DNA from: an uncultured cyanobacterium
Lineage (GTDB): Bacteria; Cyanobacteriota; Cyanobacteriia; Cyanobacteriales; CAWCAG01
NCBI GenBank assembly: GCA_963793425.1
Contig: CAWCAG010000007.1
Location: 832,001-896,000 of the forward strand
DNA: 64,000 nucleotides
Direction: 5' to 3'
Shown here: piece by piece, positions 35,839 through 41,802 of the stretch
How the letters are laid out: each line of letters opens with the position of its first letter
Numbering within the stretch: the stretch's first letter is position 1
The notes under the pieces: generated by a model
Told to the model about the DNA's origin: nothing
Database searches by the model: none
What the model saw: only the letters and a program-made list of their open reading frames with translations
Made by a program: the position numbers and the translations under genes

Positions 35839-38800
35839 ATGAAAGCCCATACTAATCGTCCGAAAAAGTCCTCTTCTGCTCCTGTCCAAAAGAAATCACA
35901 GCCCCCTGTTGCTACTCCCCCGGTAGTAACAGAAAGGACGACTGAACAGATACAACAGCTTAAAAATATCCCCCCAGAGCCGCCTCCCATAACCCTAGAC
36001 GACTCTTTCGTTCAAACAGGTGGCCATAAGGTAGAAACCATAGTAGAAGAAGAAGAGCGCTTACAAAGAGATTCTACTTTATCAGCAGAAGATAGAGCAG
36101 CATTTACCAATAGAGTACGGAGTTCAATATTAGTAGGGCAGGGAGAAAGTATGGGAATGGAGAGTTCCTATGCCCTTAACCCTGGGCAGAAACCCTTAAT
36201 TCAAGCCCAAGCCATCAACCTTGACACTGTAGCGGGAACAGAAGAACGTAGACAAAACAGTCCTTTTGGGCAACAAATTCATAATTCCCTAATTGCCAGT
36301 CATCAACAGCAGATGAAGCAAGAGTGGCAAACTGCCCCTAACTCCTTTGAGCAACCTTTAGGGCAGAATCTTCAACGGCAACAGGATAGTACGGAAAGCC
36401 AGGAGCAGCCAGCAGAAGCAAAAGAAGAACTTCAGCCAAAATCAATAGTTCAGGAGCCTCGTAAGGAAAACAAATCATCGGCACAGGGAAATAAGATTGC
36501 TATTGAAACTCCTGAACAAGAGATTAAACCCAAAGCAATTAATCAATTAGAAAGCCAGCCTCAAAAAGCACCAAATTCAGAATCAATTGGAGTCCAAGAA
36601 CAAACAAAATCTCAAGGAGAAGCCCGCAATCAAGCAGAAAAACCAGAGAGTGCAGCAACCTCTGATGCAGGCTTTGTGCAACAAGGTGCTTCTGGAGGAA
36701 CTTCTCCTACTTCTGCGGGGGAAGATGCTGGTTTTCAAGGCTTGGTGGGTGATGTCAAAGGGGTAGCAGCCCAAGAAAAACAGCATGAACCAGCGACAGC
36801 AGAAGCCAAAGAAGCTCAAGGTGCTGCTCAATCCCCTAACAATGAAGTAGAAAGTAAAGCTCAAGACTCCCAAGTTGAGCAAATGGAACAGCAGCAGCCA
36901 GGGACTTTCAGTGCAAACGCTTTCAAAGCTGCCCTCTTGGCGAAAATTGATGCTATCATTCCTGATAACGAACAAGATGCAGAAAACTTTGGTCAAAGTA
37001 ACGAATTGGATTCTGTGCGGCAAGATGTTTCTTCTCAGGTGAGTGAAGAAGAAGAAAATGCTGCTGGGCCGATTAAAGAAACCACCGCAGCCCCACCAGA
37101 TACAAGCGGCATTGAACCAAAAACTTCCCAACCTTTACAATCTCCCCCAGCAGGTACACAACCTCAAGGTGTTGATGCCACCAAAGCAGTACCGAAACCA
37201 AAGTCTGAAGCAGAAGTAGCTGCCCCTTTAAATGCCAACTCACAAGAAATAGACCAGGAGATGGCTAATGTTAATATCACCGATGAGCAGCTTGCCAAAT
37301 CCAACGAACCCCAGTTTACAGCAGCACTGGATGCGAAGAATGAACTCAAGACTAATACGCAAGAAGCCCCAGCAGCATATCGCCAGCAAGAGCAGGAAAC
37401 CCTAAATCAGTCCCAAACAGAAGCCCAAACTACCAGCCAAACTCAGCTAGCAGGAATGCACGGAGAGCGTGGACAACTTCTAGGGCAGGTGTTGGGGCAG
37501 CAACAGGCAGTTAAAAGTCAAGATGAGCAGAAACGCTCTGAGGTGGCTACCCATATCAATGGTATTTATACAACCACAAAAACCGATGTTGAGAATATCC
37601 TTAGTGGTATAGATACAGAAGTGACGAGCAAGTTTGACACTGCTGCTGGTGCTGCCAAGGGTAAGTTTGAAAGCCATGTCAAAGAAAAAATGGCAGCTTG
37701 GAAGAAGGAACGTTATGGAGAATGGTACGATGTCACGGGTTGGGATGAGCGCATTAGTGATGCAGTAGTAGGTTTGCCACCGGAGGTAAATCAATTCTTC
37801 GTCGAAGGTAAGCAGCTTTATATCGACGAGATGGATGTGGCTTTGACGGATATTGCCAACTTTGTGGCTCAGAAGCTCAATGAAGCCAAGCAAAGGATTA
37901 GTGAAGGCAAAAACCAAATCAAAGAGTATGTTGCCACTTTGCCTCAATCTTTGCAACAGGTTGGACAACAAGCGGCACAGGATATTCAAAGTCAGTTTGA
38001 GCAGTTAGAACAAAGCGTTGATAGTAAGCAAGATGAGTTGATTGATTCTTTGGCTCAGCGCTACAGTGATAGTATCCAGCAAGTGAATAGCTGCATTCAA
38101 GAAATGCAAGAAGCTAATCGTGGTCTAAAAGATAAAGTTAAAGACGGTATTTTAGGTGTAGCTCAGACTATCGCACAACTCAAAGATATGTTGATGGGGG
38201 TGTTGGGCAAAGCAGCAGGAGCTATTGGCAAAATTATTCTTGATCCCATCAGTTTCCTGGGTAACTTGATCAGTGGTGTTAGCCAGGGCTTCAATAACTT
38301 TACGGGAAATATTACAACCCACTTGCAATCAGGTTTGATTGGTTGGCTTACAGGTGCATTAGGGCCAATGGGTATCACTTTACCTGAAGATATCTTTAGT
38401 TTACCGGGTATCTTCTCCCTTGCTACCCAAGTCCTCGGTTTAACCTGGAACTACATCCGTCGCAAAGCAGTGAAGATGTTCACTGAACCTATAGTAGCAG
38501 GAATGGAGAAGAGTGCAGAAGTGTTCCAAATGCTACGAGATGAAGGGCCAATGGGCTTGTGGGAGAATGTTAAGGAGCAGTTTGGTGACCTTAAAGAGAC
38601 GATCATTGAGCAAATTAAGGGTATGGTGATTACCCAGGTGATTACTGCTGGGGTGAAATGGGTTCTGAGTTTGTTGAATCCCGCTTCAGCTTTTGTGAAA
38701 GCAGCGATGGCAATTTATGACATCATTATGTTTTTCGTCAACCAAGGTTCTCAGGTGATGGCTTTGGTGCAGGCGGTGATTGATGGTGTGAGTGCGGTTG

Positions 38801-39606
38801 CTTCTGGGGCTGTGGGGGCGATGGCCAAGGGTATTGAGAATGCTTTGGTGAGGTCTTTGCCTGTGGTGATTGGTTTCTTGGCTTCTTTGTTAGGTATTGG
38901 TGGGTTGGTGAAGAAGGTTCAGAAGATTATTGGTAAGATTAGGGCGCGGATTGATAAGGCGATTGATAAGGTTTTGAGGAAGGCTAAGAAGGGGTTTAAG
39001 GGAAAGGGTAAGAATAATAAGGATAAAGATAAACCCAATAAAGACAAAGCAGTCGAAACTGGACTTAAGGGTTTACATCTTGAAGAGAAAAAATATCTTA
39101 AAGATAATAAAATTACTAAAGCTGATGCTAAAAAAGCAGCTAATATCACCAAAACTCAACACCCTATTTTCAAATCTATTACTGTTGTCGATGGAGGTAA
39201 AGATTGGGACTACGATTACACCATTCAAAGAACTGAGGATGGGGCAGAAAAAGCAGAAGGATCTAGAAAACATCCGAATCAAACCTGCGAAGATGAAGTA
39301 TTGGAGAGACTTCAAGCTGAAAAAGATGCGATTTGTGGCTCTATACCCAAGTTTCCTAATTGTAAATTGGCTTTGGATAAACTAAAAGCTGGGAAGAAAC
39401 TTAAAGGAAGTGTGAAGGGTGTAACAAGAAAAGATGTTGAAAACCGAATGAATAAAATACAAGAATGTATTGATAAAAGATGGGAAATACAAAACAAATG
39501 CTTTGGTGGAAAGCCAGATAAAGCGCATGAAGATGCTATTCAAGAGCTAGAGAATGGCTTAAGAAACTGCCAAGAATTATTAGATCATCCTGATTTGCCA
39601 ACTTGA
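35839..39606 (+). CDS. Polymorphic toxin, contractile-injection-system (eCIS) effector-like body with a C-terminal Ntox16-like Cys-rich toxin domain
   Basis: Disordered Q/E/P-rich N-terminus with LIQAQ and LQRQ motifs, long coiled coil, hydrophobic helical region, Lys-rich linker, VVDGGKDWDYDY junction, then TC..LERLQAEKDAIC..C..ECIDKRWEIQNKCFGGKPDKAH..NC. Confidence 0.75.
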   Translation: MKAHTNRPKKSSSAPVQKKSQPPVATPPVVTERTTEQIQQLKNIPPEPPPITLDDSFVQTGGHKVETIVEEEERLQRDSTLSAEDRAAFTNRVRSSILVGQGESMGMESSYALNPGQKPLIQAQAINLDTVAGTEERRQNSPFGQQIHNSLIASHQQQMKQEWQTAPNSFEQPLGQNLQRQQDSTESQEQPAEAKEELQPKSIVQEPRKENKSSAQGNKIAIETPEQEIKPKAINQLESQPQKAPNSESIGVQEQTKSQGEARNQAEKPESAATSDAGFVQQGASGGTSPTSAGEDAGFQGLVGDVKGVAAQEKQHEPATAEAKEAQGAAQSPNNEVESKAQDSQVEQMEQQQPGTFSANAFKAALLAKIDAIIPDNEQDAENFGQSNELDSVRQDVSSQVSEEEENAAGPIKETTAAPPDTSGIEPKTSQPLQSPPAGTQPQGVDATKAVPKPKSEAEVAAPLNANSQEIDQEMANVNITDEQLAKSNEPQFTAALDAKNELKTNTQEAPAAYRQQEQETLNQSQTEAQTTSQTQLAGMHGERGQLLGQVLGQQQAVKSQDEQKRSEVATHINGIYTTTKTDVENILSGIDTEVTSKFDTAAGAAKGKFESHVKEKMAAWKKERYGEWYDVTGWDERISDAVVGLPPEVNQFFVEGKQLYIDEMDVALTDIANFVAQKLNEAKQRISEGKNQIKEYVATLPQSLQQVGQQAAQDIQSQFEQLEQSVDSKQDELIDSLAQRYSDSIQQVNSCIQEMQEANRGLKDKVKDGILGVAQTIAQLKDMLMGVLGKAAGAIGKIILDPISFLGNLISGVSQGFNNFTGNITTHLQSGLIGWLTGALGPMGITLPEDIFSLPGIFSLATQVLGLTWNYIRRKAVKMFTEPIVAGMEKSAEVFQMLRDEGPMGLWENVKEQFGDLKETIIEQIKGMVITQVITAGVKWVLSLLNPASAFVKAAMAIYDIIMFFVNQGSQVMALVQAVIDGVSAVASGAVGAMAKGIENALVRSLPVVIGFLASLLGIGGLVKKVQKIIGKIRARIDKAIDKVLRKAKKGFKGKGKNNKDKDKPNKDKAVETGLKGLHLEEKKYLKDNKITKADAKKAANITKTQHPIFKSITVVDGGKDWDYDYTIQRTEDGAEKAEGSRKHPNQTCEDEVLERLQAEKDAICGSIPKFPNCKLALDKLKAGKKLKGSVKGVTRKDVENRMNKIQECIDKRWEIQNKCFGGKPDKAHEDAIQELENGLRNCQELLDHPDLPT

Positions 39607-39619
39607 AACTCCTGTTAAA

Positions 39620-40231
39620 ATGAACAATAAAGATATTTTTGAAATAATTCGAGAACATAATGAAAGTTATCTTTTAAAGATGATTGAACAAGGTATCGAG
39701 ATAAATTCTCATATGCCCAATCCTCCTTTCTGGACTCCTTTACAAGAAGCTATAGATGAAATGGATGATGGAGGAAAAATAGAAATGGTGCAATTATTAA
39801 TTCAGGCTGGAGCTGATGTAAATGCTTGGAATCTAGACCACGATTCTAATCCTTTGCTCATGGCTATGTGGAGCGGCCATGAGGATATAGTAAGTTTACT
39901 ACTCAAGGCAGGAGCTAATCCTAATATTAAAGACAATGAAGGTAATTCTCCTCTTAGATTGAGTGTAGAGGAAGAAAACATAGAAATGGTGAAACTACTC
40001 CTTAGTCATGGAGCGAAAGAAACCATAGATGAAACTGGTGGATTCGGTGGCATGAATGCACTAGGAATTGCGGTAAATAAGCTTAATATTCCTATAATTA
40101 AAATACTTCTTGCTGAAGATGCTGATCCAGAAGCAACTGATAACGATTATCGAAAACCAATAGAAAGACTTCCCAAAAATGTAGATAGTAGTAAAAAAGA
40201 AGAAATTGAGAATTTACTAGCAAGTTATTGA
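39620..40231 (+). CDS. Ankyrin repeat protein, putative cognate immunity protein
   Basis: About 4-5 ankyrin repeats (WTPLQEAI, LLIQAGADVNA, GNSPLRLSV); starts 13 bp after the toxin stop. Confidence 0.85.
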   Translation: MNNKDIFEIIREHNESYLLKMIEQGIEINSHMPNPPFWTPLQEAIDEMDDGGKIEMVQLLIQAGADVNAWNLDHDSNPLLMAMWSGHEDIVSLLLKAGANPNIKDNEGNSPLRLSVEEENIEMVKLLLSHGAKETIDETGGFGGMNALGIAVNKLNIPIIKILLAEDADPEATDNDYRKPIERLPKNVDSSKKEEIENLLASY

Positions 40232-40241
40232 AGGCAGTTAT

Positions 40242-40640
40242 AAGAAACATGATGAAAACCCTGTGTTTTTAAACCAGGGATGAAAGCTGATTGCAGGATT
40301 TATCCTGCCAGGAAATGATATAATTGCTTAAACAGGAACGGTAATTAACCTGTCTAAAAACCCAACTGCCTAGAGGCAATCTGTACCTTGACAACTGAAG
40401 ATATGGGGTTCTATTCCATAGTTCTAGTTCCTACCCAGGAATAGGTAAAATCTTCATGGGATCTAGGCGACGCAGAATTTAAGTAAAATAAATTTTTGGA
40501 GTAATCCAACTACCGAGGGACACTCGGAAAGTTAACGATCGAGGAGAGAACCACCTCTGGATTAGATACCGCAAGGGGTCTAATCCAAGTGGACTCGTTG
40601 AACCGAGAATCTCCGTGGCTAAAGCTATGGAGAGTGTCAA
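40242..40640 (+). mobile_element. Non-autonomous IS200/IS605-family element (tnpA and tnpB absent) retaining both ends
   Basis: Follows TTAT at 40238-40241; left-end hairpin CCCTGTGTTTTTAAACCAGGG (40259-40279); right end GAAT, hairpin CTCCGTGGCTAAAGCTATGGAG (40611-40632), then AGTGTCAA; no target duplication, no terminal inverted repeats, no ORF. Confidence 0.85.
40316..40324 (+). promoter_or_regulatory. Extended -10 promoter inside the element
   Basis: TGATATAAT is a perfect TGnTATAAT. Confidence 0.7.
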
Positions 40641-40660
40641 GAAGACATTAATCTAACCCA
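40509..40660 (+). ncRNA. TnpB omega-RNA (reRNA) scaffold plus flank-derived guide
   Basis: Residual TnpB-like C-terminal codons TTEGHSES* (40509-40535); hairpins CCGAG-GGACA-CTCGG and TGGATTAGA..GCAA..TCTAATCCA; right-end hairpin and terminal TCAA at 40637-40640; predicted guide GAAGACATTAATCTAACCCA. Confidence 0.7.
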
Positions 40661-40686
40661 TGATGGCTAGATATTTCCCATAACCT

Positions 40687-41802
40687 ATGTCCCTCAAAAC
40701 TCAAAGCCAACAAATCAACAAAGCCTTAACCTTATACGAGTCTTCCCAAGGTTCCTACGATTTTCATATTTCCTCCCTCTTTATAACTAAACAAGAAGAG
40801 GAAATTATCGAATGTCGCCTCACTTTACAAATTAGCTTAGAAACTTATCAACATATCAACAGCAACGCCCTATTCAACCTCAAACCAGAAATACGCAATT
40901 CTGCTACTACAAAGTTTCAACCTTCCCCTGAAATCCACCTTGAAGCCTCCCTTAAACCTGATTTATTACAACAACTAGCAAAACAGGTTGCAAATATTGT
41001 AGAAGCTGTCAACTATCTTTTACTTCTAAGCAAAGAACAAACCTACAATCCCTTACTATGCACAGAAAGTTGGCTTGCACTTTCTGTTAAGCAGCAACAA
41101 GAGTCTGGGGAAATAGGCTACCGTACCTTCTGGTCTTATGTTAGCCCTCAAGCCCTTGCCCAAGCAAGTATTTCCGATTCTGGCGAAGAAATTTCTGAGG
41201 CTGTTGTTAACTTTTTTCAAGAGTGGACAGAATCCCACCTATCAGCAGCAACCCAGCAAACCACCTCTCAAATGTTGGATGGCATCACCAACTTTTTCAC
41301 TCAATTAGCGGATACTGCTGTGGATAAGTTTGCTGAAGTTGCCACAGCCAAGAGCAAGATTTTTGAGGAGATGGTAGATTTCTTCAGCCAAGAAGATTGG
41401 CAATTTACTTCAGTAAAAGGACAAACAATTCTACATTTAGCCTGCCAGGGTAAAAATGGGCAATGGGATTGCTTTGCAACTGCTAAAGAAGAACAACAAC
41501 AGTTCGTTTTTTATTCCCTCTGTCCTATTAAAGCACCAAAGAAGAAGCGTAGGCAATTAGGAGAATTTGTTTGTCGAGCCAATTATAGTGCAGTTATCGG
41601 CAACTTTGAATTAGATTTTAATGACGGAGAAATTCGCTACAAAACCAGCATTGATGTCGAAGGGGATTCCCTTAGTTTTTCCCTCATCAAACAAATGGTT
41701 TACGCTAATGTCACTATGATGGATGAATATTTGCCAGGGATTATAGCAGTGATTGAGGGTGAAGCCTCCCTAGAAGAAGCTATTGCTAAAATCGAAACCT
41801 AA
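40687..41802 (+). CDS. YbjN-domain (CesT/type III chaperone-like fold) protein with an N-terminal extension
   Basis: C-terminal FVFYS..P...EFVCRANY..IGNFELDFNDGEIRYKTSID motif. Confidence 0.8.
   Translation: MSLKTQSQQINKALTLYESSQGSYDFHISSLFITKQEEEIIECRLTLQISLETYQHINSNALFNLKPEIRNSATTKFQPSPEIHLEASLKPDLLQQLAKQVANIVEAVNYLLLLSKEQTYNPLLCTESWLALSVKQQQESGEIGYRTFWSYVSPQALAQASISDSGEEISEAVVNFFQEWTESHLSAATQQTTSQMLDGITNFFTQLADTAVDKFAEVATAKSKIFEEMVDFFSQEDWQFTSVKGQTILHLACQGKNGQWDCFATAKEEQQQFVFYSLCPIKAPKKKRRQLGEFVCRANYSAVIGNFELDFNDGEIRYKTSIDVEGDSLSFSLIKQMVYANVTMMDEYLPGIIAVIEGEASLEEAIAKIET

Follow-up and report, generated by a model that had tools for sequence, protein, structure and literature searches.

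The window analysed here is a stretch of 64,000 nucleotides (nt) from an uncultured cyanobacterium (Cyanobacteriales; CAWCAG01), positions 832,001-896,000 of the forward strand of contig CAWCAG010000007.1 in assembly GCA_963793425.1, and our subject is a 399-bp insert at 40242-40640 that has the build of an IS200/IS605-type transposon and no protein gene. Coordinates are window positions unless a contig is named; G000 denotes the window's own genome and C7 and similar labels its contigs. The insert lies between an ankyrin-repeat gene (39620-40231) on the left and a YbjN-like gene (40687-41802) on the right, and accounts for a 455-bp intergenic region that is otherwise empty in the genome annotation. 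An initial annotation had described an insert after TTAT lacking any open reading frame (ORF), with a bulged left hairpin, a TGATATAAT box and a right end of GAAT, hairpin and TCAA, and had taken it for an IS200/IS605 derivative that encodes no protein and retains both ends, a promoter and a scaffold of the TnpB omega-RNA type. Sequence reading and the ORF listing place each of these parts as follows, and that identification is upheld by the present analysis.

40242-40640, + strand: whole protein-free IS200/IS605-type element, 399 bp (sequence reading, ORF listing).
40238-40241, + strand: TTAT, the target tetranucleotide at which TnpA inserts the element and cleaves its left end; it would double as the transposon-adjacent motif (TAM) of TnpB (sequence reading).
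40255-40258, + strand: AAAA, left-end guide tetranucleotide, abutting the 5' foot of hairpin 1.
40259-40279, + strand: left-end hairpin 1, bulged, CCCTG...CCAGGG, followed by the conserved ATGAAAGC (DNA fold).
40293-40308, + strand: left-end hairpin 2, GCAGGA-TTTA-TCCTGC (DNA fold).
40316-40324, + strand: extended -10 promoter box TGATATAAT, with no -35 (sequence reading, promoter scan).
40509-40535, + strand: decayed tnpB codons ACT ACC GAG GGA CAC TCG GAA AGT TAA (TTEGHSES and stop).
40607-40640, + strand: right end, consisting of GAAT (40607-40610), a hairpin (40611-40632), AGTG and the TCAA cleavage site (40637-40640).
40641-40660, + strand: flank that would act as guide under the OMEGA model, GAAGACATTAATCTAACCCA.

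For top-strand single-stranded DNA the folding energy of the left end is -11.3 kcal/mol (z -3.1). That of the right end is -6.4 kcal/mol (z -3.0) on the + strand, with a z of -0.13 on the minus strand; G-T pairs explain why this end folds on the + strand alone. The hairpins of the two ends are subterminal and are not inverted repeats of one another, and TTAT (40238-40241) has no repeat after 40640, that is, there is no target duplication. The ORF listing contains no + strand frame of 30 amino acids (aa) or more inside 40242-40640; three minus-strand ORFs of 41, 32 and 53 aa lie within the element. No family reached its gathering score in an Rfam scan of 39500-41500, which returned two chance-level matches to unrelated eukaryotic families (21.2 bits versus 45, and 12.8 versus 48). 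The architecture recurs in many genomes with covarying helices and is therefore more than chance.

The core of the element (40330-40645) was searched across the order in 401 genomes from 142 genera and was matched in 173 of these genomes and 78 of the genera, many of the matches being contiguous (query 2-311) at 70-88% identity; weak matches among the 173 can be right ends linked to tnpB, and a strong RNA match (E <= 1e-20) was present in 64 of the 401. Genome G148 contains paired copies whose matches agree in E-value, bits and query range. An exact-pattern scan of genome contigs with a motif from the 5' domain of the element's RNA yielded at least 119 loci from many cyanobacterial genera, the few non-cyanobacterial records among the 119 listed being most likely chance matches. 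The loci listed comprise 86 full-length contiguous copies, 29 partial copies, several of which are partial since little flank is stored, and four sites with no copy; the copies are RNA modules of 305-370 nt in which the 5' domain and the right end are not separated by a tnpB. Flanks differ in every aligned copy, and in many genomes the copies occupy sites that are unrelated to one another. Genome G002, from the same taxonomic family as G000, has at least 10 copies, and at none of 10 loci there does a tnpB ORF lie upstream on the element's strand; at one of its loci (L031) an unrelated tnpB stands on the opposite strand about 500 nt from the copy. We assign a probability of about 0.8 to the reading that the element belongs to a cyanobacterial family, old and widespread, of IS200/IS605 derivatives without protein genes, PATE-like elements carrying a stand-alone omega RNA.

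With the family profile the window copy scores 310 bits and the best copy 335, and the window copy is therefore intact rather than decayed. BLAST finds the element single in its own genome, where the initial annotation had advised a search for further copies, and sensitive BLAST together with the family profile adds only a diverged protein-free copy, here called element B, at about 790525-790916 of C7 on the minus strand, some 41 kb upstream of the window (216 bits). Element B follows TTAC just 3' of a tRNA gene, and its left end matches those of the two tnpA+tnpB IS605 copies of the genome at 78-87% over 52-72 nt; its second hairpin looks degenerate. Two variations on the family plan were seen elsewhere. 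The copy at L209 (Sphaerospermopsis kisseleviana NIES-73) is split at profile position ~145 by about 620 bp, which are not a tnpB and consist in part of tandemly repeated units of the type GTCGAAGGGCGGT and in part of masked sequence. Four copies whose left ends resemble that of element B (L059, L060, L061 and L063) have about 170 extra bases between left end and promoter, encoding a small opposite-strand ORF that begins MPRTKRLQLLLSEPEYEALKNYAK; by eye its product resembles a ribbon-helix-helix protein and could be a regulator carried by that subfamily.

Behind the conserved -10 box stands a structured RNA of about 315 nt. Homology among 39 aligned family copies starts a few bases past the box and stops at GAGTGTCAA; TAnnnT ends 4-12 nt (mostly 7) ahead of the first helix, P1, in 36 of the 39, and AAGAAT and GTCAA are invariant or nearly so. 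The parts of the module in the window are:

40332-40353, + strand: helix P1 (ACAGG/CCTGT), where the RNA module begins; its loop GGTAAT(T/C)AA is conserved, and 4 of 5 pairs have compensatory changes.
40354-40467, + strand: rest of the family-specific 5' domain, with an AAAAACC linker, P2, P3, P4 and two pseudoknot helices.
40367-40378, + strand: hairpin P2.
40396-40402 with 40450-40456, + strand: helix P3.
40411-40417 with 40438-40444, + strand: helix P4.
40423-40427 with 40463-40467, + strand: pseudoknot helix one, 100% of cells paired.
40434-40437 with 40457-40460, + strand: pseudoknot helix two, 92% of cells paired.
40468-40606, + strand: tnpB-derived omega-RNA scaffold (nhmmer matches to tnpB 3' ends; covarying helices 6-9).
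40497-40508, + strand: hairpin P6.
40513-40527, + strand: hairpin P7.
40546-40554 with 40589-40596, + strand: long-range helix P8, which encloses P9.

The structure that was tested is hand-curated and comprises 64 pairs in 10 helices, P2 being left out of the pair counts because the alignment is poor there. Across the 39 copies 93.6% of its cells are paired, compared with 30.7-45.9% when the 3' partners are slid, and 43 of the 64 pairs show compensatory changes in which both sides are altered; not one of 500 shuffles reached any of five measures. RNAalifold alone predicts 50 pairs, 32 of them compensatory. Helices 2-5 are paired in 96%, 97%, 100% and 92% of cells respectively, and the terminal right-end hairpin (helix 10) has compensatory changes in seven of its nine pairs. 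The first ~125 nt, with the P1 loop GGTAATYAA, AAAAACC, P2, CCTTGACAA and P3/P4 with their pseudoknot strands, form a pseudoknotted RNA domain specific to the family, although the pseudoknot helices are missing from one subfamily (nine of the 39 copies). A conserved TTGACA in this domain (40389-40394) is the exact complement of TGTCAA (40635-40640), just before the guide, and the two could pair over a long range, a pairing beyond the reach of the covariation test because both are nearly invariant; some subfamilies have TTGAAA or AAGAGA instead.

The 3' portion of the RNA has counterparts in tnpB-bearing elements. An nhmmer search with the family profile picks up tnpB elements of other cyanobacteria by their 3' ends at 10.6-55 bits, over model positions ~185 to 318, and in four loci (L107, L111, L115 and L123) the match starts further upstream, at model 123-150 (at 123 in L123), which corresponds to the RuvC-III codons (KLHRDHNAA...QIL). 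The matching tnpB-bearing elements end GGGGAGTGTCAA, with the right end GAGTGTCAA, and three of them (L103, L111 and L115) have the left-end type of the window, TTAT and then AAGA...GAAAACCC...GGGATGAAGGC with a GCAGGATTTATCCTGC hairpin, followed by TATAAT and the start of tnpB, so that GAAAACCC...GGGATGAA(A/G)GC is common to these left ends and that of the window element. Hairpin 2 is near-identical on L111/L107 and L103. Thus tnpB-bearing parents that share left-end type, TTAT and GAGTGTCAA with the element, as foreseen in the initial annotation, exist in other cyanobacteria and are lacking in its own genome. Among the best 120 relatives of the closest TnpB, intact tails read ...STEGHSETLNAWGENHLW..., which fits the remnant TTEGHSES, and P0006, P0027, P0052 and P0057 end ...HRDHNAA.NILVKGLEVLGHKHSTEGHSETLNAWGENHLW...; after a 2-nt indel the window also matches the GENHLW codons of the tail. 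The remnant codons first recognised therefore match genuine TnpB tails, and together the profile and tail matches extend the tnpB-derived part from 8 codons to the last ~135-195 nt, which by homology is the 3' end, in shifted frames, and the right end of one tnpB clade. Among the sampled genomes the tnpB closest to the 3' half of the family (L087/L119, G312:C85) is a pseudogene with two TGA and two TAG internal stops, and its contig also bears a protein-free copy of the family at a distance of about 1.7 kb.

The motif of the 5' domain was found in none of 30 tnpB loci, and 12 further loci gave one unrelated minus-strand match; a profile of the 5' half found nothing better than E 4.3 in the 42 loci. 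Conversely, tblastn with TnpB of the clade against the 119 motif loci listed detected TnpB-like frames in three, none of which lies between the 5' domain and the right end. These comparisons bear on the view that the element arose through a recent internal deletion of a tnpB element resident in G000, with no wider family behind it. The decayed tail codons at 40509-40535 are what such a deletion would leave, but full-length protein-free relatives at 70-88% identity exist in many genera, contiguous in 86 of the 119 loci listed, and G000 holds no parent with matching ends. Family membership across so many genera means that this was not a one-off local event; the contiguous relatives and the 39-copy alignment refute a recent local deletion, whose probability we regard as close to nil. 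The earlier proposal that a deletion had taken out almost exactly the protein accordingly gives way to descent within an old protein-free lineage, whose 5' ~125 nt is absent from all 42 tnpB loci.

The ends of the copies were compared with those of IS608. GAAT serves as the right-end guide of IS608. For that element the four bases 5' of each hairpin foot read the cleavage sites, the left site being TTAC with guide AAAG and the right site TCAA (PMC3201880, in a portion of text in which GAAT does not occur). Left-end boundaries and target/guide counts of the cyanobacterial family were read by eye in the 28 copies with a recognisable left end, 23 of which follow TTAT (15) or TTAC (8). Target and guide tetranucleotide are combined as TTAT/AAAA in 12 copies and TTAC/AAAG in seven, four have another guide, and none is crossed. 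This covariation holds over two unrelated left-end types, the A-type of the window and the B-type (GGGTTTAAAGCCCCGTCC...) of element B and the two tnpA+tnpB IS605 copies of G000, so one RNA module is found with two or more unrelated kinds of left end. That target/guide pairing follows the IS608 rules is well supported at the level of the family because the two covary across copies as in IS608, and the pairing of AAAA with TTAT proposed at the outset for the window copy is borne out in this way; the expectation that all copies would follow TTAT holds for 15 of the 28, with eight after TTAC and the remainder after neither.

Each copy of the family combines an IS608-type left end, an extended -10 promoter, the ~315-nt structured RNA and an IS608-type right end (GAAT, hairpin, TCAA). 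The 3' 135-195 nt of the RNA go back to a single tnpB clade, namely to its omega-RNA region between the RuvC-III codons and the right end. At the family level, a Y1 TnpA made elsewhere would peel out the top strand and paste it 3' of TTAT or TTAC. The element's own promoter would drive the RNA through the right end so that the guide is taken from the flank, and the RNA would load a TnpB made elsewhere, which would cut the empty donor joint, here TTAT joined to GAAGAC..., the copy then being restored by recombination. For the window copy itself, transcription, TnpB loading, cleavage and mobilisation are steps that we infer from this scheme.

A number of results weigh against this reading, above all for the copy in the window. 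No TnpB of the parent clade was found in G000 at E <= 1e-100, the best being 46% identical, which lowers the chance that the element works in this cell and leaves its descent from an omega RNA untouched. All tnpB-linked right ends in G000 read GGGGAGGATGTCAA instead of GAGTGTCAA, no other A-type left end exists in that genome, and the family profile matches nothing there beyond the window copy and the one diverged copy. The TnpB clade (E <= 1e-100) occurs in 55 of the 64 strongly RNA-positive genomes versus 196 of the 337 others (odds ratio 4.4, a figure overstated because related genomes are not independent), but nine of the 64 lack it, including G000 and the 100% complete G044. A consensus sigma-70 scan of the element gives 0 sites, with no -35/-10 pair, and for that reason the promoter named in the initial annotation, conserved as it is in 36 of 39 copies, has been narrowed to an extended -10 box. 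Nor does this reading account for where the 5' domain came from and what it does, for one RNA module being carried on different left ends, or for copies that persist where the parent nuclease is missing.

Nor was a clean empty site found in the sister species G001, which lacks the element. Homology of G001 to the window starts exactly at 40641 (82% over 1166 nt), where it is preceded by ...GATTTAC, and the right junction is therefore confirmed; the left flank in G001 is a different gene, which G000 has on another contig, and there is heavy rearrangement between the genomes. The empty site that relatives had been expected to show is thus supported on its right side and has no syntenic left flank. 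Transcription of the window copy also found no backing in public sequencing runs, none of which contained half or more of the sampled words of the stretch; the 24 runs listed held 0.11-0.16 of them, corresponding to the conserved part of relatives. Contigs of relatives, 80-96% alike, are present in four RNA libraries from four studies, where they cover 40341-40616 only, reach summed depths of ~800 in two libraries and in some cases continue through GAGTGTCAA into flanks of their own; lack of coverage elsewhere in the stretch carries no information. Such contigs give neither transcript ends nor strand and may include DNA carry-over, and they fit expressed relatives.

The 16-nt guide has its own flank as sole perfect match in G000, and of nine sites with two mismatches none follows TTAT or TTAC. 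A near-match to this guide at C5:442702, identical to the G001 flank, was set aside as a chance match since no homology surrounds it.

The genome does contain potential partner proteins, and it is conceivable that the copy is active where it stands, with one of the cell's own distant TnpBs (about 10 full-length genes of the '...GGHPETLNGRGG...' type) cutting TTAT joined to GAAGACATT and one of its own Y1 TnpAs mobilising the element. G000 has 20 PF07282 (TnpB-domain) matches, 10 of them in open frames of at least 400 aa, and six PF01797 (Y1-transposase) matches. Its TnpB right ends share the plan GAATCCCCG-hairpin-...GTCAA and, by eye, a similar 5-bp hairpin at the GGH codons, a tnpA and a left end of broadly similar build (CCCCCAG...CTGGTGGGATGAAT) are present in an IS605 remnant at C7:424.8-425.7 kb, and the element, undecayed, is among the best-scoring of its family. 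Its own TnpBs, however, are 33-46% identical to the parent clade, the family model misses their omega regions, and the single copy of the window subtype does not point to recent transposition. Of the six TnpA matches, moreover, one is probably of the type associated with repetitive extragenic palindromes (REP) rather than an insertion-sequence transposase: this homologue (C5:1762012) lies at about 1761700-1762900 of C5 with short REP-type repeat arrays on both sides, a RAYT-like arrangement unrelated to the element. We consider present activity in this genome unlikely. Since neither a cognate tnpB nor a tnpA/tnpB element with the same ends was found, the window copy, a member of the protein-free family by our preferred reading, is most likely intact but stranded and inactive at present, and the mobilisation and TnpB loading in trans first suggested for it are doubtful in G000. 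Read-through into the YbjN-like gene is its only probable effect, and a possible foreign promoter ahead of that gene is worth flagging in the annotation.

The missing nuclease could also be read in another way, namely that the RNA module is an exapted or self-standing RNA gene whose 5' domain has a role without a cognate TnpB, be it host regulation, use by another protein or service as a promoter-leader cassette for the downstream gene. The conservation, covariation and pseudoknots of the 5' ~125 nt, their absence from the tnpB loci examined, the attachment of the module to two or more unrelated left ends and the nine strongly positive genomes without the TnpB clade would all suit such a gene. 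No + strand terminator follows the right end (40641-40686), and the YbjN-like gene, which shares the element's orientation, begins 46 nt further downstream, so read-through from the element's promoter may enter it. Yet the copies lie at differing, non-orthologous places with unrelated flanks, they keep transposon ends and the target/guide covariation that are the signature of a selfish element, genomes with the family tend also to have the TnpB clade, a second target for the guide is lacking in G000, and the element is absent from the sister species. An exapted RNA gene is in our view very unlikely, more so than activity in G000 is. A broader proposal, tentative and improbable to much the same degree as present activity, is that the ~315-nt RNA represents a cyanobacterial RNA gene lineage freed from its parent tnpB, with the 5' domain and promoter replacing what the tnpB mRNA normally supplies and so enabling the RNA either to hijack diverse TnpBs or to work with no cognate TnpB at all. 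If true, it would account for the module on different left-end types and for its intact persistence without the parent nuclease.

To the left of the element, 35839-39606 encodes a 1255-aa protein with a C-terminal Ntox16 toxin domain (E 1e-8) and is followed by the 203-aa ankyrin-repeat protein (39620-40231). The two look like a polymorphic-toxin and immunity pair, and neither gene has a match at the corresponding place in G001.

Protein-free IS200/IS605 elements with omega RNAs have been described before, so that the principle is a known one. Literature searches, which did not extend to the supplements of the papers cited, found no published description of the cyanobacterial family. The element resembles IS608 of Helicobacter pylori (PMC3201880) in its insertion 3' of a tetranucleotide, TTAC there and TTAT or TTAC here, in its subterminal hairpins, in the reading of sites by the four bases 5' of the hairpin foot and in the right site TCAA; the spacing is close, with 19 nt from target to left hairpin foot in IS608 versus 17 nt here and the end of TCAA 10 versus 8 nt past the right foot. 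It differs in having neither tnpA nor tnpB and in its hairpin sequences. With the domesticated TnpBs of the TldR type, which use fixed guides (PMC10705468), it has in common a TnpB-type guide RNA, but its transposon ends are intact, its guide matches its own flank only and is not aimed at another host locus, its copies are non-orthologous rather than fixed in position, and no nuclease-dead tnpB is adjacent. A further parallel is given by mobilised stand-alone omega RNAs without effector or transposase, which reportedly function in trans when a compatible effector is supplied (Altae-Tran et al., 2021, as described in PMC10691335); the element likewise lacks both proteins, with the difference that the effector of the parent clade was not found in G000.

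The closest parallel is with the minimal, PATE-like IS200/IS605 elements of Geobacillus stearothermophilus, which often encode omega RNAs that need TnpB in trans (Meers et al., 2023; preprint PMC10055086). Both lack a protein gene, share their ends with tnpB/tnpA elements and have an omega RNA that would depend on TnpB and TnpA supplied in trans. Here, in contrast, the elements form a cyanobacterial lineage with a conserved extended -10 promoter of its own and an extra pseudoknotted 5' RNA domain of ~125 nt unseen in the tnpB loci examined, and the RNA module sits on different left-end types, with no cognate tnpB found in G000. To the principle already published the present analysis adds a well-delimited family from many cyanobacterial genera, with a covariation-supported structure, a conserved promoter, target/guide covariation and an identified parent tnpB clade, and this family offers a convenient natural system for studying how stand-alone guide RNAs are made without self-processing by TnpB, what the added 5' domain contributes and how non-cognate nucleases are used.

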